From Candidatus Woesearchaeota archaeon (GTDB taxonomy: Archaea > Nanobdellota > Nanobdellia > Woesearchaeales > GW2011-AR4), in the NCBI GenBank assembly GCA_016185945.1, contig JACPMR010000015.1, positions 7,256-71,255 of the forward strand: a stretch of DNA of 64,000 nt, written 5' to 3'. Made by a program: the position numbers and the translations under genes. Under the pieces are notes generated by a model. That model worked only from the letters and a program-made list of their open reading frames with translations. It had not been told where the DNA came from and made no database searches. Below, one piece after another: positions 13,407 through 23,814 of this stretch. Positions within the stretch are counted from its first letter, which is position 1. Every line of letters begins with the position of its first letter.

Positions 13407-15296
13407 TTACACCACATTCACATTCATTATCTGCTCAACTTTTTCAATTCCGTCGCTTACTGTAACTTTAATAACTTTTGTGCCTTTGCTTGTGAATGTT
13501 CTTTGATGGCTGGAAGTTGCCTTATACTTTTCCAAAAGCCCAAAGTTCCATGTGTAAGTCAGTTCATCTCCATCGTCGTCAACTGCTTTCACAAATAAAA
13601 GAACAGGCTGATTTGCTCTTGCTATTACGCTTTTTGTCGAATCAATTATTTTAGGCGCCCTGTTTTTATCCGTTACCTCAACTTTTGCAATTTGCCTTGT
13701 CTCTGCCTTGCCATCGCTTGCAACAAAAATCAAGTCAAGCTTCTTTGTTTCCTTTTTATTTGCTATATCAAAACTTGGTGTCCACAAGAATGCATTTCCT
13801 TTAATTGAATAGTCCTCTGGAGCATTATCAATCCTGAATGTCATTTCATCCCCGTCTGGGTCGTGGGCATTTAGAAGTATTGCAATATTGTCGCCTTCCA
13901 TTGCTTTTACACTCTCAATCTTGCCGAACAATGGCGCCCTGTTTGTTTGCTGTATGTTAATCTGCACAAACTTTGATGTTTCAAGCAAGCCGTCGCTTGC
14001 AGTTACTTTTACATAATAAATTCCTGCATCATCATAGCCTGAATTGAAAGTGTCAGAATCCATAAAGCCGGAGTATCTTAAAGTTATCTTATTTTCATCC
14101 AAGTCATATGCTTTTGGCACAATTTTTAATGTTTCGCCCTCATTTATTGCTATGGGCTCCATGTCTTCAATTAGGGGGGCTCTATTTACATCCTTGACTG
14201 TGATTATTATATTTTGAATAATTTTCTTGTCTTTTGAAGATGCAATAAACTGAACATAGAAGCTCTTGCTCAAAACCCTGAACTTGTCCATAACTTTATC
14301 TACGAAGCCCTCTTTCCTTACTGTGTCAAAATTTGTTTTCCATGCGAATACATTGCCTTCAAGCATTGCGCCTTCTGGCAGATTGTTTGCAGAATAAGTT
14401 ATTTCATCTCCGTCAGGCTCATTTGCACTTAGTGTTATTTTTACTTCCTCATTCTCATTTATTACTTTGTTCTCAACTTTCTCAAAAAAAGGCGCTCTGT
14501 CAACATCATTTACGATCACCTTAACAATTTTGTCGCCGCTGAAGCCTTTGCCTTCTGCATGAACTTTGAATTCATAAGCGCCTGCATCCTGATAAGCAGT
14601 CTTCCACTCATTCTTGCTTAGCGGCTCTGAAATGGAGTAAGCCAAGCCGTATTTTTCAAAATTGGGTAGCTTTAACTTAACAACCTCATTTTCATTAACA
14701 GCAACATCGCTTATGCCATTTAACAAACCTTCAACATCAACATTCTGTGCATTAACTTGCCATTCCTTGCTTGCTGAACTTATTACATCAGAAACAGAAG
14801 CGGTTATTCTATGAGAGCCAGCGTCGTTATAGGTTGTGTCATAAGTGAATTCCTGCCCATCCGCGACTTTTTTGTCGTCCAAAAACCACTCGTAGCTTAA
14901 AGCATCTTTGTTTAAATCACTTGCTGAAACTTTAAATTCAATAGAATCGGTTTCCTTAATGCTTAAAGTATCCTGCCTTGGGCTGAACGAATCTATCTTT
15001 GGGCTTTCTTCTTTCTTGTTGACAACAATCAGCACTTCCTGCGATGTCTCTGTAACGCCGTCAGAAACAGTTATTGTGGTTTTATGCTCGCCTGCATCTC
15101 CGTAACCAGTTTGCCATTCGCCGTTTTCATTGAGAGGAGGAGCGTAAGTTATCGTAAGCTTGTCCGCATCAGGGTCTGCTGCATTCGGCACTAGGCTTAT
15201 CTTTTCAGTTTCCTGGATTACAAAAGTAGTGGCTGAATACACAAGATGGGGGAATATTAAAAAGATGATTAGCAATAATACAATCCTTTTATTCAT
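13407..15296 (-). CDS. secreted surface protein with tandem cadherin-like/Ig-like Ca-binding repeats
   Basis: 629 aa; N-terminal signal peptide; repeated ~95-aa units with NRAPLF/NRAPKI starts and DPDGDE/DDDGDELTYTW motifs. Confidence 0.6.
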   Translation of the reverse strand: MNKRIVLLLIIFLIFPHLVYSATTFVIQETEKISLVPNAADPDADKLTITYAPPLNENGEWQTGYGDAGEHKTTITVSDGVTETSQEVLIVVNKKEESPKIDSFSPRQDTLSIKETDSIEFKVSASDLNKDALSYEWFLDDKKVADGQEFTYDTTYNDAGSHRITASVSDVISSASKEWQVNAQNVDVEGLLNGISDVAVNENEVVKLKLPNFEKYGLAYSISEPLSKNEWKTAYQDAGAYEFKVHAEGKGFSGDKIVKVIVNDVDRAPFFEKVENKVINENEEVKITLSANEPDGDEITYSANNLPEGAMLEGNVFAWKTNFDTVRKEGFVDKVMDKFRVLSKSFYVQFIASSKDKKIIQNIIITVKDVNRAPLIEDMEPIAINEGETLKIVPKAYDLDENKITLRYSGFMDSDTFNSGYDDAGIYYVKVTASDGLLETSKFVQINIQQTNRAPLFGKIESVKAMEGDNIAILLNAHDPDGDEMTFRIDNAPEDYSIKGNAFLWTPSFDIANKKETKKLDLIFVASDGKAETRQIAKVEVTDKNRAPKIIDSTKSVIARANQPVLLFVKAVDDDGDELTYTWNFGLLEKYKATSSHQRTFTSKGTKVIKVTVSDGIEKVEQIMNVNVV

Positions 15297-15328
15297 TTAT
15301 TCCCCCCCTCGAAATGAAAAGAAAAAAT

Positions 15329-16363
15329 TTATTTTTTCTGCACTATGTCTGTTATAACAGGCGGCCTGTTGACATTCTCAACAGTTATTGCCAATTTCTG
15401 CTCTGTTGTGTCCTGCCCGTCAGATGCCGTTATAGTAACTTCATAAGTGCCTGCACTTGCATAATCTGTCTGCCATGTGAACGCATTGTCTTCCTGCGCA
15501 AACCTGTTGTCGCTGATTGAGTATGCTATTGAATCCCTATCATCATCTGTTGCCAATGCTGTTATGACAATCTTGTCTGTCTCTTTTGCGGATATGTCTT
15601 CTAATTTCTCCAAAACCGGCTGCCTGTTCACATTTTTGATATCCACCGACCATATCTTGCTTGTGCTTGACAAGCCATCAGACACTTCCACCTTGATTGT
15701 ATGTGTGCCTGCATCCTCGTAAGTTGATTGGTAGGTATATTTGTCTTCATTGCCTACGTCAGTGCCGTCAAACTTCCAGGCATATGACAAAGAATCTTTA
15801 TTTAAATCGCTTGCTGTGACGGTAAATTCAATTGCTTGGGTTTCATCAATTGCCAAGCCGCTTTCGATTGGCTTTGCGCTGTCGATTGTTGGCGCCTCTT
15901 CTTTTTTGTTTACAATTATCAAAACATCTCTTGCAGTTGTTGATTCCCCATCTGATACCGTAACTGTGACTGTGTATTCGTCTGCATCTCCATAGTTTGT
16001 TTGCCATTCGCCGTTTTCGCTTAATGGCGATGTAAATGTGAAAACAAGGCTTGTGTCTCTGTCAGGGTCTTCTGCTCTTGGTGATAAGCTTACCAAATCA
16101 GTTTCCTGAACAACCACAACAACTGGCTTTTCCCCTGTTGGTTTTTCCATTATTTCTTCTTTAACCTCGACTTTGGGCTCTTCTTCCTTGGTTGCTTCGC
16201 CAGTCACTTCGGGCTTTTCTTTTGTAACATTTTCCATACTTACATTTTCAGCTGGCTTTGTAGCATTAGGAGCACCATACAAAGTTTGATATACTTCACA
16301 ACTGCTTAACAAGAATACAGAAACAATTAGCAATGCCACCAATTTTTTATTAAAGTCCATCAT
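15329..16363 (-). CDS. lipoprotein-like surface protein with cadherin-like/Ig-like repeats (paralog of adjacent gene)
   Basis: 344 aa; signal peptide with LLSSC lipobox-like motif; Glu/Lys/Pro-rich linker then repeats homologous to 13407..15296 (NRQPVL, NRPPVI, VSDG motifs). Confidence 0.6.
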   Translation of the reverse strand: MMDFNKKLVALLIVSVFLLSSCEVYQTLYGAPNATKPAENVSMENVTKEKPEVTGEATKEEEPKVEVKEEIMEKPTGEKPVVVVVQETDLVSLSPRAEDPDRDTSLVFTFTSPLSENGEWQTNYGDADEYTVTVTVSDGESTTARDVLIIVNKKEEAPTIDSAKPIESGLAIDETQAIEFTVTASDLNKDSLSYAWKFDGTDVGNEDKYTYQSTYEDAGTHTIKVEVSDGLSSTSKIWSVDIKNVNRQPVLEKLEDISAKETDKIVITALATDDDRDSIAYSISDNRFAQEDNAFTWQTDYASAGTYEVTITASDGQDTTEQKLAITVENVNRPPVITDIVQKK

Positions 16364-16519
16364 GCACCCTCCTTTATTCTGAAAATAAGTGTTGCTATTC
16401 TAAAATAATAACTTGTATTTAAACTTTGTGGTAGTTAAAAGATTTTTAAATAACCTATAAAAATAACATTCAATAAATTGCAAAGGATTCATTCTAAATA
16501 AATTTGTATTGAAAAGAAA

Positions 16520-16594
16520 TGGGCTCGGCGGGACTTGAACCTGCGACCTCTGCCTTATCAGAGCAGCGCTCTAACCAAGCTGAGCTACGAGCCC
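16520..16594 (-). tRNA. tRNA-Ile (anticodon GAU)
   Basis: Minus-strand cloverleaf GGGCUCG-UA-GCUC-AGCUUGGUUA-GAGC-G-CUGCU-CUGAUAA-GGCAG-AGGUC-GCAGG-UUCAAGU-CCCGC-CGAGCCC-A; 7-bp acceptor; one A-C mismatch in the T-stem. Confidence 0.8.
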
Positions 16595-16649
16595 AACAAA
16601 TAATGGAATAATATTTAATTTATAAAGTTTATTAGAAGGAAAAATATAG

Positions 16650-16800
16650 CGCCCTTGACCAGACTTGAACTGGTGACCTTCCATTCCTTTACTAGGATTT
16701 ACGGTGTCTAACCCTGTAGGATAACAGCTTCGTAGTTTCTACCAGAACTCGTACGCTCCACCTATTGCTCCATGCCTTTGCATGTCTGAGCTACAAGGGC
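16650..16800 (-). tRNA. intron-containing tRNA (151 nt; at least two non-canonical introns; isotype unresolved, possibly Arg-UCU)
   Basis: Perfect 7-bp acceptor GCCCUUG/CAAGGGC, canonical U8-A9-GCUC-AG start of the D-arm, T-arm ACCAG-UUCAAGU-CUGGU; about 75 extra nt between D-arm and T-arm including a CAUGCAAAGGCAUG hairpin inside the D-loop. Confidence 0.55.
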
Positions 16801-17570
16801 GTCAAAAATTTTTTAAGTTCTGGTAGATTAGAAACAATTGAACCTTCAAATTCTTTATAAAACTTTCTAGTTAATGATGGGATAAAAAATACAACTTTAT
16901 AACCAAGTTTATTATAGTCTTTGAGTTTCTTCTTTATATGACTAATTCTATCTTTATTGGGATGCTTCCATTCTGTTACTTCAATAATTTTATCATCAAT
17001 TTTAAAGTCAGGAAAATAAACTTTTCCATCTACATTAATATAAGGCTCATACTCAAAACCTATGCTTTCTTGAATTAAAAAATTCCCTATTTTCTGTTCT
17101 AATAAATTTCTTACAGGAATTTCATTATCTAGGCAATATAGATAGCCCCTACCAACTTTCTTGAATCTTTCGTACTGCCAAATATGATATTGTTTTGGAA
17201 GATTTTTTTTCATATATTTATGCCATTTCTTCATTCGCTTGGAACTTATTTTTCTTAGTCTCTCAATCTCGTACTGTAATGTTCCTTCTCGTATCTTCTT
17301 AAGCACGCAGTTTTTTCCACCTTTGATTTGACCCCAATTTTTAGGGAGGTGTTCTAAAATTTCATTTTTGTATTTGGACAAATCTTCATCAATAAATTTC
17401 AGTATTTTTTCTAGTCTATCCGTTCTTACGCATGTCAATTCGAATTTATACTTATAAACCGAACCTTTTGACAGGGTCAATATTTTGCACAATTTCCTTT
17501 CAGAACCAGCTTTGGTTATTGCTCTGCAAATTATTTCTTTTTGCACTCCTTTTTTAAATTTTAAAACCAT
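16791..17570 (-). CDS. HTH plus DUF559/Vsr-like endonuclease-domain protein
   Basis: 259 aa; C-terminal YFPDFKIDDKIIEVTEWKH ... GYKVVFF resembles the DUF559 endonuclease-like pattern (PDF..IIEVdG..H ... GW-V-RF); 3' end overlaps the 5' end of the intron-containing tRNA by about 10 nt. Confidence 0.4.
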   Translation of the reverse strand: MVLKFKKGVQKEIICRAITKAGSERKLCKILTLSKGSVYKYKFELTCVRTDRLEKILKFIDEDLSKYKNEILEHLPKNWGQIKGGKNCVLKKIREGTLQYEIERLRKISSKRMKKWHKYMKKNLPKQYHIWQYERFKKVGRGYLYCLDNEIPVRNLLEQKIGNFLIQESIGFEYEPYINVDGKVYFPDFKIDDKIIEVTEWKHPNKDRISHIKKKLKDYNKLGYKVVFFIPSLTRKFYKEFEGSIVSNLPELKKFLTPL

Positions 17571-17728
17571 AACATTGGTGGTGTTAACTTATATTTAAGC
17601 ATTACTAAGCTATAGGGGCATGAAGTTTTGAGATAAAAGAATCGTTTAAATAGGTTTCGTTAAAGTAAAATTGTGATTTCTCAGAAACAAATTCAACCCG
17701 TTGCCTTCGGCAACAATATTTACTGCTC

Positions 17729-17758
17729 GGTGTCGCTTGTCTGCCATTCAGCGACACC
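17729..17758 (-). terminator. GC hairpin immediately downstream of the FKBP gene
   Basis: GGTGTCGC-ttgtctgccattca-GCGACACC, 8-bp perfect stem, 8 nt after the stop at 17767; a second hairpin GTTGCC-TTCG-GGCAAC at 17700-17715; no clear U-tract. Confidence 0.3.
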
Positions 17759-17766
17759 TCGCCTGT

Positions 17767-18183
17767 TTATGCATTAACGGCAACAACCTTAACCTTGAAT
17801 GTCAGTTCCTTTCCTGCCAATGGATGGTTCAAGTCAATTGTAACAACATCTTCTTTCACTTCTTTCACAACAGCAGGCATCCTTTCTCCATTCGGCCCCT
17901 TAAGGAGTAATGTCCCGCCTGCCTGAACTTCTGGAGGGAATTTATCCCTTGGGATTTTTGCTATCAATCTGCTGTCTATATCTCCATAAGCGTCTTTTGG
18001 ACTTATCTTGAATGTTTTTTCTTGATTGAGATTCATTTCCTTTATTTGATTTTCAAAGCCTGGAATTACTTCTCCATTGCCTATAGTTAATTCCAATGGC
18101 TGTTTGCCTTCGCTTGAATCAAATACAGTACCATCATTCAAAGTGCCTGTGTAATGGACTTTTATTTTGTCTCCTTGGTTCAT
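17767..18183 (-). CDS. FKBP-type peptidyl-prolyl cis-trans isomerase (SlyD-like, with IF insertion)
   Basis: KIKVHYTGTLNDGTVFDSS, LELTIGNGEVIPGFE, NHPLAGKELTFKVKVV: FKBP domain with insert-in-flap region. Confidence 0.8.
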   Translation of the reverse strand: MNQGDKIKVHYTGTLNDGTVFDSSEGKQPLELTIGNGEVIPGFENQIKEMNLNQEKTFKISPKDAYGDIDSRLIAKIPRDKFPPEVQAGGTLLLKGPNGERMPAVVKEVKEDVVTIDLNHPLAGKELTFKVKVVAVNA

Positions 18184-18235
18184 TGGAATACCTAAAAAAC
18201 GGGAAAAATAAAGATGGTATTTAAAGGTATTGTGA

Positions 18236-18604
18236 TTATCTTACAAACTCGACGTTTTCGAAGCCTTTGAATGCATAATCTCCTGTCACGAATTTTAAGT
18301 TTAATTTTAATGCAGCCACATATCCAATGCAATCAGTAAAGCTAAATCTTTTTTTATTATTTGCAAGTTTGAACTTATTTGCGTCTTTGATTATATCATC
18401 ATCTGTGCTCATGATTAATGGCAGTATAAGATTGTATATTCTTTCTGCCTCTTCATTTCCAAAATTCTTCAAGTAATAGAAATGAATTTCCATAATGTTA
18501 AATATTGTTGTTCCGGCTTCTATCGGGCTGATAGAGTAATTACTGTACTTAGGGTTTTGTGTAGCTATTTCTATCAGCGCATAAGTGTCCAGAAAGTATT
18601 GCAT
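18236..18604 (-). CDS. vapC: PIN-domain ribonuclease toxin (VapC-like)
   Basis: MQYFLDTYALIE (first acidic residue), FTDCIGYVAA, TGDYAF: PIN catalytic residues; start taken at the internal Met so that it abuts vapB. Confidence 0.7.
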   Translation of the reverse strand: MQYFLDTYALIEIATQNPKYSNYSISPIEAGTTIFNIMEIHFYYLKNFGNEEAERIYNLILPLIMSTDDDIIKDANKFKLANNKKRFSFTDCIGYVAALKLNLKFVTGDYAFKGFENVEFVR

Positions 18605-18605
18605 T

Positions 18606-18827
18606 TTACCTATTCCATTCCTTCCTAAGCTCGTCTTTTGCCTTCTGCGCATCAATTTTTAGATGCTTGCTTGCGCCCCACAATTTGCTTAAATCAACTT
18701 TCGGGATAATCTCGAAAGTAACTTCCTGGCCGACTTTTAGTTTTCTCTCTTTGACATAATGCGGAGGAACAGTCAAAACAATGCTGTTTCCTGACTTCCT
18801 GACTCTTGTAGTTGGCATATTAATCAC
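18606..18827 (-). CDS. vapB: AbrB/MazE-type antitoxin (VapB-like)
   Basis: 73 aa; SpoVT/AbrB swapped-hairpin signature VRKSGNSIVLTVPPHYVKERKLKVGQEV; directly upstream of and overlapping the PIN gene. Confidence 0.65.
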   Translation of the reverse strand: MINMPTTRVRKSGNSIVLTVPPHYVKERKLKVGQEVTFEIIPKVDLSKLWGASKHLKIDAQKAKDELRKEWNR

Positions 18828-18917
18828 CTATGTAATACATATGTAATACGGAAGTATTTAAAGGTTTTGGGTAGGAATATAGGAAATATTTAAATTATCA
18901 AAACTTATCCTGTATAT

Positions 18918-19703
18918 ATGAAAGAGAAAGCTGTAGAAAAAGTGGAAAATTTCATTGATTTATCCATGCCTATTGTGAAAGCCGCTGTTAACATACCTAC
19001 TTTAGGTTTTGGTGGAGCTGTTATCGAAATATTTCAAACTGACTACCGATTATCAAAAGAAAGGAATATTAAAGAGTTTTTTGAAAGTATAGACAAAAAA
19101 CTAAAGGAAATAGGAATACAAATTGATGAGACAATTAAAGAAAGGCTGAAATCTCCTGAATTCTATCAGATTATCACAAGAATACTAACTAAAATTCAAA
19201 TAGAAAGTAGAAAAGAAATAAGAGAGATTTATTCAAATTTACTTATTCAATTACTTAAGGAAGAACCAAAAATTAATTTTAATCAAAAATTATTTTATTT
19301 AGAAATATTGGGAAATTTAAATGAAGACCATATTAAAATATTAAGTGTTTTTTATAAGGAAGGGGAAGTAAAAAGCAGATTTAGACTAGATTCACTTTAT
19401 GAAAAGACTCGATGTTATGAAACCAAGAAATTAAAAAAAGGTGATCCAGATTTTGATTTTATGGGATTTAAAGAACGGAAAACTCTAAATTATGCGAAAT
19501 CTTCTTATTTTAAAGGTTTAGTAAGTGACTTAGTTGGTAAACAAATAATTGATATTTTTCAAGAAATTGAATCAACCCCAGAATACAAAGAAGAGGGAGA
19601 TGTTAGAAAAGAGTTAAAATCTATTGAATCAGAAATAAAGGAAGAATATGAAGGAACAGAATTGGGATTAAGTTTCTATAAATTTGTTCTGACTTATAAA
19701 TGA
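18918..19703 (+). CDS. hypothetical protein, first gene of a two-gene module (possible Abi-like partner)
   Basis: 261 aa, no recognisable catalytic motif; hydrophobic Gly-rich N-terminal segment IPTLGFGGAVIEIF; co-oriented, 35 bp upstream of a PD-(D/E)xK nuclease-like gene. Confidence 0.4.
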   Translation: MKEKAVEKVENFIDLSMPIVKAAVNIPTLGFGGAVIEIFQTDYRLSKERNIKEFFESIDKKLKEIGIQIDETIKERLKSPEFYQIITRILTKIQIESRKEIREIYSNLLIQLLKEEPKINFNQKLFYLEILGNLNEDHIKILSVFYKEGEVKSRFRLDSLYEKTRCYETKKLKKGDPDFDFMGFKERKTLNYAKSSYFKGLVSDLVGKQIIDIFQEIESTPEYKEEGDVRKELKSIESEIKEEYEGTELGLSFYKFVLTYK

Positions 19704-19738
19704 AAAATCAAAATTTTTAAAGGAATTCAGATTAATTT

Positions 19739-20635
19739 TTGAACATGGATAATTCAATCAAAGAAAAGATAAAAAATCACATTTTAGAGCATGGATTTTT
19801 ATTAGAAGAAGAAACTAAAACTTTCTTAGAGTTACAAGGATGGGAATGTGAAAGAAATGCTCATTTCGTCGATCAAGATGTTCCAACCGAATCAAGAGAG
19901 ATTGATATAATTGCCCGTAATTTTAGTTGGTATAAAAATTTTGACCCAAAAAGGATTCTAGTTAGATTTGATTTAATAATTGAATGTAAAAACTATAAAG
20001 ATCCAATAGTATTTTTTTCTACTAATAAAACTAGAGAGGACAAAGAAATTTTCTTTTCAAAAGAATTGATCAATTTTTTTACTACCCATGATACTGTTTA
20101 CGTGCCTATTCCAGAATCACAAAATAAAAAAGTTATATCTGTTGCTGAATTCTTGAAAATTGATAAATATCATCATTTTTTTAATAGTAATTTAAAAGCC
20201 ACAAACCTTAATTTATCAAGAGTTAAGTCTGATTATTCATTCTCAAATATAAAATTATATGAAGCTACTATATTACCATTAATCAAAGCAAATGACTGGT
20301 ACAGAGCAGACCGTAAGAATAGTGTTAAACTTTTTGCTGGAAATAGTATCCACGTACCATTTTCATTTATTATTCCAATTTTAGTACTTGGTAATGATTT
20401 TTTTGAAGCATATTTTGAAAATGGAGAGCTTAAATTAAAAAAATCAGATTATATTCAATTTATTTCTGATTATAGATCCAAAAATATAAATGGACGTTTC
20501 CAAATTGATATAGTGAATAAAAGTTATTTTGAAAATTATCTAAAAGAAAAAGTAGATGTGACTATTAATAAGGTTAGTGAAGTTATATTAAATAACTTCC
20601 AAGATATAGATAGATTTAGTCATATTTCAAATTAA
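19739..20635 (+). CDS. PD-(D/E)xK (restriction-endonuclease-fold) nuclease-like protein with C-terminal domain of unknown function
   Basis: N-terminal segment EIDIIARNF ... RFDLIIECKNY supplies a D ... D-x4-E-C-K motif typical of Mrr/NERD-like nucleases; about 200 aa of unassigned C-terminus. Confidence 0.5.
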   Translation: MNMDNSIKEKIKNHILEHGFLLEEETKTFLELQGWECERNAHFVDQDVPTESREIDIIARNFSWYKNFDPKRILVRFDLIIECKNYKDPIVFFSTNKTREDKEIFFSKELINFFTTHDTVYVPIPESQNKKVISVAEFLKIDKYHHFFNSNLKATNLNLSRVKSDYSFSNIKLYEATILPLIKANDWYRADRKNSVKLFAGNSIHVPFSFIIPILVLGNDFFEAYFENGELKLKKSDYIQFISDYRSKNINGRFQIDIVNKSYFENYLKEKVDVTINKVSEVILNNFQDIDRFSHISN

Positions 20636-20643
20636 AAATATAA

Positions 20644-21039
20644 TTATTTAATAATTGAAGTATTAATAAGATTTTGTGTAGTTCCTAAATATCCTCCAAA
20701 CCATAAAGCTGCTATGATTAAGATAGAAAAGGAACCGTATGCTAAAAAACTAATTTGATAGAACTCAACTGGAAGACTTTCTTTTGATAGATAAGCTACT
20801 AAGGCAATTATACCTATAATTGTACCAATATTAAGATAAATTTGAAACCAGTTAGGTAAATTATTGAAATAATGATAAAAGATCTGCCATAATAATAAAG
20901 AATTTAAAAAAATGCCAACTCTTCCTATATAAGATTGTCTAAATTCAACAATACCTGCAACTACTAATCCTATCATAGCAATATATGATAGGGATTTTGG
21001 TAGTATTATTAATGTCTCAATCATTAAAGGTGTTGTCAT
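20644..21039 (-). CDS. small integral membrane protein (4 TM), unknown function
   Basis: 131 aa, four hydrophobic helices. Confidence 0.4.
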   Translation of the reverse strand: MTTPLMIETLIILPKSLSYIAMIGLVVAGIVEFRQSYIGRVGIFLNSLLLWQIFYHYFNNLPNWFQIYLNIGTIIGIIALVAYLSKESLPVEFYQISFLAYGSFSILIIAALWFGGYLGTTQNLINTSIIK

Positions 21040-21082
21040 GGTTATAAATTAATAAAAATAATGTTTAAATTTATTGACTAAG

Positions 21083-21400
21083 TTAAGAGTTTATTACATC
21101 TTGTGCAATTTTCTTATAAATTAAATGTAATAAATTATATTTATTATTTTTTTTATTTATCTGGAAATATTTTGATTTATCATCTTCCCTTGTTTGTACA
21201 ATTAAATTTTTATCTAATAAATCTTTAATTGCATTTCTAACTGCTGTTCTTGATAATCCAGTACCTTTATGAATTTGAGTTATGGTAAAATCAAAATTCT
21301 CTCCTAAAAAAAAGAAATCAAGAACTTTAATGGTATTATTAGTACCAAAAACATTTTCAAAAAGGGGTTTACCTAAAAGTAATTTTTGTTTCATCGCCAA
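21083..21400 (-). CDS. winged-helix transcriptional regulator
   Basis: 105 aa; HTH segment ITQIHKGTGLSRTAVRNAIKDLLDKNLIV. Confidence 0.5.
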   Translation of the reverse strand: MAMKQKLLLGKPLFENVFGTNNTIKVLDFFFLGENFDFTITQIHKGTGLSRTAVRNAIKDLLDKNLIVQTREDDKSKYFQINKKNNKYNLLHLIYKKIAQDVINS

Positions 21401-21516
21401 TTCACCTCTTATTTGAAAATGACTACTGAAGTATTATAATAAATCATAAAGTTTAAATATCAGTACACCCTAACTCCTTATAGGTGTATGTTAGGGTGAC
21501 TGACAAAAAACTTTTC

Positions 21517-21756
21517 TTATCTTTTTCTTGGAACAAAAGTTAACTTACCATTTTTCAATGGAATAATTTCCTTTCTTTCAATCAAGCCATCAATTGATTT
21601 ATCCGAATTTTTGGTATTTATACCAATATTTTTTAGATAAACAACAATCTCTGCTCGATGAAAGCTGGTTATTCCAGCGTTCTTTAATTCGATAAGATAG
21701 TTTTGTACTATGTTATCTATGGGCCTCATCGTAATCACCTTCCCCCACCGACCCAA
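21517..21756 (-). CDS. small hypothetical protein
   Basis: 79 aa ORF followed by a 9-bp perfect inverted repeat CACCCTAAC ... GTTAGGGTG at 21457-21495. Confidence 0.3.
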   Translation of the reverse strand: MGRWGKVITMRPIDNIVQNYLIELKNAGITSFHRAEIVVYLKNIGINTKNSDKSIDGLIERKEIIPLKNGKLTFVPRKR

Positions 21757-21950
21757 GCAGGTTTAAACATGATTTTTCAGGAGGAAAAATCAATGGCAAA
21801 TACAACAATTTCTTTTTGGAAGGTGATTAGTCGTTGCCGACTAACAAGATGTGTTATTCTTAGAGTTTATAAATGTTTCCTTTTTAGAACATTATCGTCT
21901 TAAAAAAGACATAAACTAAACCTATAGATTTGGAATAAACCCTTTCTAAA

Positions 21951-22040
21951 CCTCCACTTCCCTCTCCACCACAATCTTCCCTGTCACACTCCTCACTATT
22001 TGATTGATTATCTCCAAATCATAGAATTGTTTTAGTGAAA
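21951..22040. repeat. degenerate direct duplicate of the 3' end of the radical SAM gene (att-like)
   Basis: CCACTTCC ... ACAATCTTCCCTGTCACACTCCTCA matches CCACTTCC ... ACAACCTTCCCAGTCACGCTCCTCA at 22331-22420 (the real gene end), about 22/25 identity in the core and weaker on the flanks; the copies bracket the Bro-N fragment. Confidence 0.55.
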
Positions 22041-22124
22041 GCATTCATAGCCTCAAAAAGCATTCAAATACCACTGGACATTCCCAGACAAAGTATTTAA
22101 AGCAATACTTGTACTCATGCCAAC

Positions 22125-22352
22125 ATGGAGCCTGAAAACGCCCTTGTAGTATTCCAAGGCAAGAAAATAAGGAGAACTTGGTTTAATGATGAGTGGTGGT
22201 TTGTAGCCGTTGATATTGTAGAGGCATTGACTGACTCAAAAGACCCTAATGGCTATTTAAAGGATATGCGAAGGAGGGATGAAGGCTTTGCTCAAGGATG
22301 GGGGCAAATTGCCACCCCCCTTTCTATTGATACACCACTTCCACTTTCTTAA
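22125..22352 (+). pseudogene. Bro-N (phage antirepressor N-terminal) domain fragment
   Basis: 75 aa: ALVVFQGKKIRRTWFNDEWWFVAVDIVEALTDSKDP fits the Bro-N pattern (F-F ... IR ... WF-A-DVA--LG); truncated, GC-richer than surroundings, 3' end overlaps the radical SAM gene. Confidence 0.5.
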
Positions 22353-23814
22353 CAACCTTCCCAGTCACGCTCCTCAACATCTGCCCCGTAACCTCAATGT
22401 CATAAAACTTCTTCAACTCTAGTCTTCCTTTAACCCCAACAATGATAGGATATGTTCCAAATTGACGGCAAAAAGTTGTATTCCCATCATAAATCTCGGC
22501 ATAGCAATTAGTCAAAACTGTTCCATTTGGAATTACTCTCTGGAGCATTGGCCAGTCAATCTTCTGCCTTATGTCATTGCGCCATTTCCAATATAATTTC
22601 TTGTTCTTCTTCAGGAACTTGTCTTTGCCTTCATTGTACAAAGAAGTGCCTTCAAATATTGCAACCTGCCTAATATTTATCCTGCGAAGCATCAATCCTT
22701 CATTGTAAATTCTTGAAAGCCATTTCATGTTTTCTTCATGCGTTTTCTTGGTTTCATTCCTCAAGCCGAATATTATGTTGACTCCGGGCAAAAACTTAGG
22801 AAGTCCATCAGAGCCTCCTTCAGAGCCATACTTGTTCAAAATCTTAATTGCTTCATAAGCAATATTTGGCGGAGTGTTCAAAGTGTTTGCCTTGACAACT
22901 TCCATGTCAAATGATTCAATTCCAAAAGCAGCTATGTTGCCTGAAGTGCAATACTTCACAACAGCTTTTGTGATTGCAAAATCATTCTGCCTGTCCATCA
23001 CAACTTTTACAGGGTTTACATTGTCAATGTGCAAAACTTTTATGCCAGGGCATTTCTCATTGATTTCTTTTAACAATTCAGCAGCATAAGGCAAAGTGTA
23101 AAAGCATGTCTGCTTTCCCAATCTAAAGTAGCGAGCGCCAAGCTTGTAAAACTCAATAATTTCATTCAGAACATCCTCTTTATTCCTGAACTCAACCTTA
23201 TTCTTCAAAGGCTCTGTGCAGAAAGAGCATTTTCCAATGTCGCAGCCATGCCCTGTCTCAATCTCAACCATTCTCAAGCCAGGAATCTGTTTTATGATTG
23301 ATGCCCCTTTAACGGAATATTCCTTAACATCCTTGTACGGAAAATTAAACATCAAATGCTCAACCTTGTCAAAAATGCTTAAATCCGCCTTCTCAAAGAA
23401 CCTGCCTCCGAATAATTGCGTGCCAAACACGGCAGGCCCTGTCAAAATCTTCCTGCATTTCAAATCCTTTAACATCGGGATAATCTCGTGCAAAGTGCCA
23501 GGCACAGCAGAAAGATACTTTCCGGGAACGTGAACGCCAAGAACAACAACCAAAGTTTGTGTTTCCTCCAATATTTTTTCAATATTTTTGTGATTTACAG
23601 TCAGATTGTATGTTGTTATGTCGGTTTTTTGTGATAATTTTGTCTCCTTGACAATTCCGTTATGCTTCTTCCATAACCTCAAATCATCAATTGTCAGGTA
23701 ATTAACATCTTCATTAAGGTAGCCGGCTATGTACCTTGGGTATGTGCCAAGGTAAGGAGGCACTCCCAAGCCAGCGGGCTCGTCAGTATAGCAGTCAATT
23801 ATAGTATAAGTCAT
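22324..23814 (-). CDS. radical SAM superfamily protein (archaeal subfamily, unusual CX4CX2C cluster)
   Basis: 496 aa; Cys cluster GHGCDIGKCSFCTEP (C-x4-C-x2-C); N-terminal domain of unknown function (MTYTIIDCYTDEPAGLGVPP) is a possible B12-binding-like module. Confidence 0.65.
   Translation of the reverse strand: MTYTIIDCYTDEPAGLGVPPYLGTYPRYIAGYLNEDVNYLTIDDLRLWKKHNGIVKETKLSQKTDITTYNLTVNHKNIEKILEETQTLVVVLGVHVPGKYLSAVPGTLHEIIPMLKDLKCRKILTGPAVFGTQLFGGRFFEKADLSIFDKVEHLMFNFPYKDVKEYSVKGASIIKQIPGLRMVEIETGHGCDIGKCSFCTEPLKNKVEFRNKEDVLNEIIEFYKLGARYFRLGKQTCFYTLPYAAELLKEINEKCPGIKVLHIDNVNPVKVVMDRQNDFAITKAVVKYCTSGNIAAFGIESFDMEVVKANTLNTPPNIAYEAIKILNKYGSEGGSDGLPKFLPGVNIIFGLRNETKKTHEENMKWLSRIYNEGLMLRRINIRQVAIFEGTSLYNEGKDKFLKKNKKLYWKWRNDIRQKIDWPMLQRVIPNGTVLTNCYAEIYDGNTTFCRQFGTYPIIVGVKGRLELKKFYDIEVTGQMLRSVTGKVVKKVEVVYQ

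Follow-up and report, generated by a model that had tools for sequence, protein, structure and literature searches.

Analysis of a 64,000-nt window from Candidatus Woesearchaeota archaeon (GCA_016185945.1, contig JACPMR010000015.1, positions 7,256–71,255, forward strand) indicated that its accessory region at 16.8–22.3 kb probably comprises two independent variable loci, parted by the core gene of an FKBP-type peptidyl-prolyl isomerase. The first is a cassette at approximately 16641–17604 of the window, which is best read as a homing-type element, that is, a free-standing gene for a predicted nuclease fused to a complete multi-intron tRNA-Asn gene. The second is a cargo slot at 18184–22323, between FKBP and the core gene of a radical SAM protein (rSAM). 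A total of 104 related loci (L-numbers) were fetched for comparison, 55 of them being rSAM-anchored Woesearchaeota loci. Relatives of the rSAM protein with 80–90% identity were annotated as Woesearchaeota or Nanoarchaeota, and the window has a low GC content.

Overall Layout of the Region

Across the 55 loci, the backbone order was a membrane protein, rSAM, a first variable slot, FKBP, a second variable slot, tRNA-Asn, tRNA-Ile, and two cadherin-like genes. FKBP is a core gene that adjoins rSAM in L003 and L014, where it begins 27–30 bp after it, and the 16.8–22.3-kb block is therefore regarded as two unrelated variable loci. This result contradicts the first-pass annotation of the sequence, which had proposed a single tRNA-bounded island, although every feature it had named was recovered at or near its reported position. 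As that annotation had anticipated, the block was variable or absent among the 55 loci, with the exception of the core FKBP gene. The GC content dropped to 21–29% over 18850–21550.

Borders of the Nuclease Cassette and the Displaced Exon Copy

The cassette and its immediate surroundings contain the following features:

16641..17604, minus strand: laterally shared cassette with a BRE/TATA-like box, the nuclease open reading frame (ORF), and a complete tRNA-Asn gene (blastn against L062)
16791..17570, minus strand: ORF of 259 aa, XRE-type helix-turn-helix (HTH) plus Vsr/DUF559-like PD-(D/E)xK nuclease (family alignment, AlphaFold2 model, Foldseek, phrog_29037)
17605..17619, minus strand: displaced copy of tRNA-Asn nt 1–15 (exon 1A, GCCCCTATAGCTTAG), of the L016 allele type (alignment)
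17620..17661, minus strand: native tRNA-Asn promoter region, beginning AACGAAACCTATTTAAAC, common to nuclease-free alleles

By blastn, the window and L062 were 93.9% identical over 987 nt (17624–16641). Within the cassette the two sequences were 94–100% identical except in intron 4 of the tRNA, rising to 98–100% in the 3′ half of the ORF and through most of the tRNA. The flanks were far more divergent, with 77.5% identity on the AbrB-PIN-FKBP side and 68.5% in the cadherin-like genes. The left border of the cassette is the first base past exon 1A, and the sequence upstream of it matches the nuclease-free loci L016 and L003; the right border lies approximately 6 nt beyond the tRNA. The promoter region at 17620–17661 showed 84–87% identity (blastn) to L003, L001, and L016, where it stands directly upstream of their tRNA-Asn genes. 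These data demonstrate one clear lateral transfer of the cassette, between the window and L062.

Exon 1A (17619–17605) ends precisely at the 15/16 intron site of the tRNA. Its acceptor strand has the L016 form (GCCCCTG/A), but the working acceptor stem has that of L062 (GCCCTTG/CAAGGGC); therefore, the whole tRNA arrived with the cassette. An upstream copy of tRNA nt 1–15, followed by a conserved BRE/TATA-like box, was observed in approximately 10 lineages. The 259-aa nuclease ORF was absent from all 55 rSAM-anchored loci, and in several nuclease-free relatives FKBP lies directly before tRNA-Asn.

The spacer between FKBP and the tRNA promoter (17662–17766, minus strand) is GC-rich and has a folding z-score of -3. 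It contains two strong hairpins, one of 9 bp (GGTGTCGCT/AGCGACACC) and one of 7 bp (GTTGCCG/CGGCAAC). The first hairpin (30 nt) is single-copy in the window, and no copy of it was detected in the 104 fetched loci. These hairpins could represent a terminator or a small RNA.

The Nuclease and Its Family

The 780-bp nuclease ORF is identical to HYX02_06325 (Woesearchaeota). It shares its final 10 nt, stop codon included, with nt 1–10 of tRNA-Asn (16791–16800), which agrees with the previous description of an HTH plus DUF559/Vsr-like endonuclease gene overlapping the tRNA 5′ end. The AlphaFold2 model of the protein had a pLDDT of 92.9 and displayed an XRE-type HTH at the N-terminus and a PD-(D/E)xK domain at the C-terminus. 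Foldseek matches included the catalytic domain of I-Bth0305I, Bax1, XRE repressors, DUF559, and Vsr; in the PDB, the C-terminal domain had its best compact match in this I-Bth0305I domain (probability 1.00, rmsd 3.2 Å, 76 columns). Structural matches among viral proteins were to DUF559, Vsr, and phage homing endonucleases, and the protein also matched the endonuclease family phrog_29037. The structural model and its matches establish an XRE-type HTH joined to a Vsr/DUF559-like nuclease fold, with nuclease activity as the predicted function.

The family consists of approximately 77 proteins, typically of about 259 aa, and all members with a named source are from DPANN archaea. A Pfam domain, the XRE-type HTH, was recorded for just one member. 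Residues E175, D188, and E197 are invariant, and H203 is conserved in the closer members only. The N-terminal HTH region was also found fused to other C-termini, in ORFs of 177–432 aa (L099, 481–1776; L100, 4442–4972; L101, 5923–6612). A metagenome scan for the family was performed with a 19-sequence alignment, and the tRNA-linked family had no match in the viral-contig scan.

The position at the tRNA 5′ end was found in at least 19 DPANN lineages. In all complete members that were checked, the ORF ends either 10–57 nt within the tRNA gene or, as in two lineages, 10–27 nt upstream of it. The variable C-terminal tails of the family (ASVA, PS, PP, and PL) are translations of tRNA nt 1–15. The partner tRNA is tRNA-Asn for nearly all members and tRNA-Thr(TGT) for one distant member (L083, 1231–2125); the distant members in L079 and L085 lie beside a tRNA-Asn whose 5′ intron is at 8/9 rather than 15/16. 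These cases suggest that both the tRNA target and the site have changed within the family.

The stop codon of the nuclease gene corresponds to nt 8–10 of tRNA-Asn, so that RNase P, acting on a co-transcript, would produce a non-stop mRNA. With the stop codon placed within the tRNA, expression of the nuclease may be coupled to tRNA maturation.

The tRNA Genes and Their Introns

The two tRNA genes reported earlier proved to be tRNA-Ile(GAT) and a tRNA-Asn(GTT) with four predicted bulge-helix-bulge (BHB) introns:

16519..16595, minus strand: tRNA-Ile(GAT), intron-less (ARAGORN; Rfam RF00005, 67.6 bits)
16650..16800, minus strand: tRNA-Asn(GTT), 151 nt, with four BHB introns (orthologue alignment, BHB scan, in silico splicing)
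16785–16765 (15/16), 16749–16729 (30/31), 16721–16706 (37/38), and 16698–16679 (44/45), minus strand: introns of tRNA-Asn (BHB scan)
16800–16786, 16764–16750, 16728–16722, 16705–16699, and 16678–16650, minus strand: exons of tRNA-Asn (alignment)

The tRNA-Asn gene has a clean acceptor stem and T arm, and its identity was determined by alignment to intron-less orthologues. Removal of the four predicted introns in silico yielded a perfect 73-nt cloverleaf, which ARAGORN called as Asn(GTT). Three of the introns have a 4/4 central helix; in the 37/38 intron the central helix is 3/4 and is accompanied by an h′ helix of 3 bp. For the 15/16 intron, the h′ helix showed full covariation over approximately 20 loci, with an invariant central helix and invariant bulges. 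The unspliced gene was called neither by ARAGORN in its default and intron modes nor by Rfam at both thresholds. The four-intron Asn solution was preferred over a relaxed ARAGORN call of Leu(TAG), which was rejected.

A 2015 review (PMC4390854) put the highest intron count of an archaeal tRNA at three. Four introns at equivalent positions were also solved in L062 and L063. L065 was solved to four introns at other, lower-scoring positions, and four introns in L056 were seen by eye only and not by the solver. Intron 4 (44/45) of the window (16679–16698) and that of L062 (~2063–2077) are wholly different in sequence, with 20 vs 15 nt, whereas the exons and the other introns around it are 96–100% identical. 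This comparison points to replacement of an intron at a fixed site within a very short time.

In some relatives, tRNA-Ile(GAT) itself carries one or more introns (L060, 4890–5060, with very long inserts; L014, 13484–13580; L053, 13116–13210).

A Proposed Homing Model for the Cassette

Among the solved tRNA-Asn genes, an intron in the D-loop was present in all 19 of the nuclease-bearing loci and in two of 19 nuclease-free loci, and every solved nuclease locus had an intron in the 5′ third of its tRNA. Three kinds of tRNA-Asn allele were observed, corresponding to the stages of a homing cycle, namely empty (L021 is intron-less), intron-only (L003 and L016), and intron plus nuclease. Decayed copies of the nuclease gene were also found, which were frameshifted, internally deleted, or fragmentary (pseudogenes in L090, L091, and L098).

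Several properties of a homing gene were found together at this locus: a nuclease fold of a class known from homing enzymes, with a DNA-binding domain (AlphaFold2 and Foldseek), a fixed site at the tRNA 5′ end, presence/absence polymorphism, a border at 15/16, lateral spread in one clear pair, and degenerate copies. The sequences are best read as a homing-type element. The nuclease would cut a cassette-free tRNA-Asn at or near position 15/16 of the D-loop, and repair would copy the cassette into the broken gene together with its tRNA, which would resist cleavage because it bears introns. The resident promoter and tRNA nt 1–15 would stay upstream of the inserted cassette, as in the arrangement observed here. 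We infer DNA cleavage, the target site, and intron-conferred immunity from this pattern; the architecture, its recurrence, and the presence/absence states are direct observations.

The earlier suggestion that a tRNA had served as an integration target was borne out in part. A tRNA is involved as the presumed target of the nuclease cassette, on its 5′ side at 15/16, but it is not a 3′-end att site.

Alternatively, the ORF may lie within a BHB intron of approximately 0.85 kb at 15/16, so that the upstream 15-nt copy would be the real first exon, driven by the native promoter, and the splicing endonuclease would free the ORF-bearing intron as an mRNA. In archaeal rRNA introns carrying LAGLIDADG genes, the excised ORF-bearing intron likewise serves as mRNA. 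This arrangement would be compatible with homing, and several observations agree with it. The native tRNA promoter precedes the upstream copy, which terminates exactly at 15/16, retains a GCT[CT]AG motif able to base-pair to the same 3′-splice-site GAGC, and is identical to the downstream copy at 15 of 15 positions in five divergent lineages. Moreover, the stop codon would survive splicing from the upstream copy but would be lost if RNase P cut at the downstream copy. However, the upstream copy of the window has two acceptor-stem mismatches to the 3′ strand, and in at least six lineages with an intact ORF and tRNA the copy is degenerate or absent. The conserved BRE/TATA-like box, and not a conserved h′ helix, opens at the base next to the copy, and the downstream copy with its mini-intron is already a complete tRNA gene. 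Placement of the ORF within an intron is therefore considered unlikely, and the cassette is preferentially read as a free-standing nuclease gene joined to a complete tRNA.

The Cargo Slot Between rSAM and FKBP

The second variable locus and its FKBP boundary contain the following features:

17767..18183, minus strand: FKBP-type peptidyl-prolyl isomerase, core gene (FKBP_C, Pfam, 1e-21; in 19 related loci)
18236..18827, minus strand: PIN toxin (18236–18601) and AbrB/MazE-like antitoxin (18606–18827), VapBC-like (sub-threshold Pfam matches)
18918..20635, plus strand: two-gene module of an Abi_alpha protein (18918–19703; PF14337) and a 298-aa partner (19739–20635; motif)
20644..21756, minus strand: GC-poor block with ORFs of 131 aa, 105 aa (MarR/Csa3-like winged HTH), and 79 aa, without homologues in the 55 loci

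The slot at 18184–22323 is empty in L003 and L014, and elsewhere it ranges from 0.35 to more than 7.6 kb. The cargo clusters are nearly all singletons across the relatives, and over the loci they include Abi_alpha, AbrB-PIN, Fic, GNAT, CARF/Csa3-type winged HTH, Cas6, Cas8a-like, Cas7, and Bro-N proteins. Because the flanks are conserved, empty sites exist, and the mostly singleton cargo is unrelated from locus to locus and includes defense and toxin genes, the slot can be regarded as a hypervariable defense/toxin hotspot of the ordinary kind between core rSAM and FKBP. Recombination with anchors in the core genes on either side would drive the turnover of its contents. The second slot, between FKBP and tRNA-Asn, is also variable, with Fic, leuCD-leuB, CHRD, and MFS genes in relatives.

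The previously noted PIN/AbrB genes form a putative VapBC-like pair: the Pfam matches were sub-threshold (PIN, 3e-4, 21.9 bits vs a gathering threshold of 23.6; MazE, 3e-3, 18 vs 24.7 bits), but the pair and its order are kept in eight related loci (L001, L004, L007, L009, L013, L018, L023, and L029). NCBIfam antitoxin models also matched the antitoxin gene.

The two co-oriented genes downstream had been left without a function, except for a PD-(D/E)xK motif in the second. The first could be assigned to Abi_alpha (PF14337, 3e-10, 40.9 bits vs a cutoff of 29, profile positions 2–195 of 196), and it had no match in the viral-contig scan. The second, the 298-aa partner, belongs to a family of 464 representatives with a conserved E...SREID...ECK signature, and residues E21, D54, and E80-C-K82 were conserved in a 40-sequence alignment; the motif was therefore upheld, but no match was found in Pfam, PDB, PADLOC, PHROG, or NCBIfam. 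An AlphaFold2 model built from two sequences was unusable (pLDDT 33), and hhalign gave a probability of 1% for a relationship to the tRNA-linked nuclease family. By its motif, this protein is a nuclease candidate. Among the 55 loci, the pair occurs only in L009 (2263–3982), with amino acid identities of 91% for Abi_alpha and 56% for the partner, which points to uneven divergence or a mosaic within the module.

In the GC-poor block, the 131-aa protein appears from its sequence to have four membrane spans, and the 105-aa protein has a sub-threshold Pfam match to a MarR-type winged HTH and resembles MarR/Csa3-like winged helices. Both agree with the small membrane protein and winged-helix regulator proposed before. 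The interval 20552–21933 had no blastn counterpart in the related loci.

Two relatives deserve mention at this slot. In L054 (5821–12917), a full-length Bro-N gene sits amid a type I CRISPR-Cas set (Cas6, a Cas8a-like CXXC protein, and Cas7/Csa2). In L034 (11287–11360), the rSAM match ends at residue 429, tRNA-Asn follows approximately 70 nt later, and FKBP is absent; a deletion that took out the entire slot along with the rSAM 3′ end, or else a faulty assembly, could account for this. Beyond the two variable loci, downstream of the tRNAs, the window encodes two large proteins, both secreted, in which cadherin/Ig-like modules are repeated internally (13407–16363, minus strand), and which are 47–78% identical in relatives.

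The Displaced rSAM 3′ End and the Bro-N Fragment

The rSAM end of the slot contains a second displaced gene end:

21946..22046, minus strand: relic of an rSAM 3′ end, reading LSLKQFYDLEIINQIVRSVTGKIVVEREVEV to a stop codon, with the clade-typical tail (hmmsearch, 44.8 bits, E = 1.9e-11)
22072..22332, plus strand: Bro-N gene fragment, upstream region plus approximately 70 of approximately 276 codons (PADLOC PDC-S13, 1e-17)
22324..23814, minus strand: radical SAM gene, core, with the tail VVKKVEVVYQ; the working copy of the duplicated end is 22324–22420 (approximately 100 nt)

A duplicate of the rSAM 3′ end had been proposed from the letters of the sequence, and formal comparison substantiated it. 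A profile built from 51 rSAM C-termini detected the relic at 21949–22041 (hmmsearch, 44.8 bits, E = 1.9e-11), and local DNA alignment to the working end scored 42 vs 19.1 ± 2.3 (maximum 30) in 500 shuffles, or approximately 10 SD. The two copies agreed in 66 of 91 aligned columns (72%), without an identical core, and the relic matched the rSAM 3′ ends of 13 loci by blastn. Profile searches detected no comparable relic in the 55 related loci, and neither profile nor repeat searches detected a third copy in the window, which would have pointed to tandem elements.

The working C-terminus reads LELKKFYDIEVTGQMLRSVTGKVVKKVEVVYQ to its stop codon, and its tail, KKVEVVYQ, is atypical, resembling those of L024 and L050. 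The tail of the relic, VVEREVEV, is the one found in L023, L008, L009, L003, and L001. Because the closest relatives share the tail of the relic, the relic is taken as the displaced native end. The two copies enclose just a 276-nt Bro-N fragment, the 5′ quarter of the gene. As had been reported, this is a Bro-N domain fragment: it matched residues 1–72 of the 286-position PADLOC profile (1e-17), with a sub-threshold Pfam match, and was 70% identical to residues 1–70 of the 276-aa Bro-N protein of L054. The homology to L054 halts where the fragment meets the rSAM stop codon, in a shared AAAGGG.

The relic is best read as the scar of one recombination or replacement event and not as an att site. 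In a single event, the last rSAM codons would have been swapped for a foreign tail, and the native 3′ end of approximately 100 nt would have been pushed downstream, where it decays. The event was probably a homology-facilitated illegitimate recombination that ended in microhomology.

The first-pass annotation had instead proposed an integration hotspot or a decaying integrated element. If an integrase-type element had entered the rSAM 3′ end or a tRNA and then decayed, the duplicated target end would represent attL and attR. A significant direct duplicate of the rSAM end does flank foreign Bro-N DNA, the working end differs in allele type from the relic, as if an element had supplied a replacement end, and the adjoining block is low in GC. 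However, no integrase matched any ORF of 16.5–22.4 kb in Pfam, NCBIfam, or PHROG, where short fragments were not exhaustively searched, and profile scans of 29 cargo proteins, taken from both slots in related loci, detected no integrase or recombinase. In addition, the 72% identity without an identical core, the mere 276 nt enclosed, the lack of a relic in the 55 related loci, the position of the GC-poor genes outside the repeats, and the core status of FKBP, by which the block is not tRNA-bounded, all speak against this explanation, which is judged improbable. What stands of the proposal is that the region is accessory, is highly variable among close relatives, and contains displaced gene ends that record insertion or replacement; the integrase and the att core were not found.

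Assessment of the Proposed Events

Several observations weigh against the events proposed here for the cassette and the rSAM end. Cassette identity was clearly above flank identity in only one pair, the window and L062, two other pairs look vertical, and no further mosaic pair of this kind was found among 18 loci. The association of the D-loop intron with the nuclease (Fisher p = 1.2e-8) was calculated with loci treated without regard to phylogeny. No clear EDxHD motif or (D/E)xK lysine is recognizable in the family, and the fold match did not yield a residue-level assignment of EDxHD. The 15/15 identity of the upstream and downstream exon copies would not be predicted for a simple decaying relic; it is consistent with re-homing that happens often, or with a functional role of the upstream copy as the real exon of an intron that bears the ORF. 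At the rSAM end, a sliding-window nearest-neighbor test detected no mosaic, all relatives being 80–86% identical, and the truncated Bro-N gene demands a pre-truncated donor or a second deletion.

In most family pairs, cassette divergence is similar to, or not comparable with, that of the flanks, and gene order near tRNA-Asn is partly conserved, as would be expected for a vertically inherited host gene syntenic with tRNA-Asn, with the L062 identity due to an assembly or binning artifact or to strong selection; but this is very improbable given the jump from 68–78% to 94–100% at two sharp borders, the 15/16 site and the tRNA 3′ end, its presence in two independent assemblies, the nucleotide identity over the ORF 3′ half, at which synonymous sites are conserved too, the absence of the nuclease from every rSAM-anchored relative, and the existence of pseudogenized nuclease copies and a displaced exon copy.

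Comparison With Known Systems

In Caldiarchaeum subterraneum, a 5′ fragment of tRNA-Thr(GGU) is followed by a 1.87-kb insert, which carries an 813-bp ORF, and then by a restored tRNA that has one additional intron (Sugahara et al., 2012, PMC3293823); the locus was interpreted as an intron gain through a mobile element (PMC3293823). By analogy, this locus appears to be the closest precedent for the cassette. Both have a 5′ tRNA fragment upstream and an ORF of approximately 0.8 kb (813 vs 780 bp) immediately before a complete tRNA with an extra non-canonical intron (PMC3293823), the comparison being one of layout. The Caldiarchaeum case differs in being known from one population and in having the 1.87-kb insert, an extra repeated “a” region, and multiple genomic copies (PMC3293823). 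Its ORF was only predicted to function in DNA binding or recombination (PMC3293823), whereas the present one is structurally assigned as a Vsr/DUF559-like nuclease, in a cassette of 0.96 kb. Unlike Caldiarchaeum (PMC3293823), the arrangement described here occurs in at least 19 DPANN lineages, strictly at the tRNA 5′ end, with insertion at the conserved BHB site 15/16.

The EDxHD/Vsr-like homing endonucleases related to I-Bth0305I (Taylor et al., 2011, PMC3239194) also have an N-terminal HTH-type region and a C-terminal Vsr-like nuclease, and their genes are tied to an intron insertion site in a conserved gene. However, their genes lie within bacterial and phage inteins or self-splicing group I introns (PMC3239194). 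In the present family, the ORF is linked to an archaeal BHB site, where introns are spliced by proteins, and overlaps the tRNA 5′ end, and EDxHD is not evident.

A PD-(D/E)xK homing endonuclease, I-Ssp6803I, is present in a group I intron of a bacterial tRNA-fMet gene. In collaborative homing, free-standing endonucleases act with a nearby intron, such as F-CphI (cyanophage psbA) and T4 SegB (tRNA cluster). The cassette resembles such systems in that the nuclease gene lies beside and not inside the intron-bearing target, is co-inherited with it as a block, and has a presumed recognition site that the intron would interrupt. In contrast, F-CphI and SegB are phage enzymes of the GIY-YIG or EndoVII type and are associated with group I introns. 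In the literature searched, no nuclease genes tied to BHB tRNA introns in DPANN archaea were found, nor anything comparable for archaeal BHB introns.

The cargo slot, for its part, shares with defense islands the conserved flanks, the empty sites, and the rapid turnover of toxin–antitoxin, Abi, CRISPR-Cas, Fic, and CARF genes. It differs from the usual islands in its small DPANN genome, the lack of a visible integrase or transposase, and the scar of a displaced core-gene end.

Implications for Archaeal tRNA Introns

How BHB introns reach non-canonical tRNA positions and why some lineages accumulate them are long-standing questions. Intron transposition, integration of mobile elements, and protection against integration have been proposed to explain their gain (reviewed in PMC4390854; case study in PMC3293823). 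The present locus provides a recurrent and testable system, in which the nuclease family is so far known only from DPANN archaea, the empty, intron-only, intact, and decaying stages are all visible, and one lateral transfer has been caught whose border is the intron site itself. In addition, the cargo slot documents a defense hotspot in a reduced archaeal genome. Because standard finders missed the four-intron tRNA, the tRNA complements of DPANN genomes may be under-called.

Tentatively, the HTH plus Vsr-like family could be a mobility engine for archaeal tRNA introns, which would cut the 5′ third of intron-less tRNA genes and co-convert itself together with immunizing BHB introns. If true, this would amount to a “collaborative homing” for protein-spliced introns. 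It would explain both the gain and the build-up of non-canonical tRNA introns, up to four in one gene here, and would give a concrete molecular basis for introns shielding tRNA genes from selfish DNA. The cassette may thereby help explain the spread of archaeal tRNA introns.

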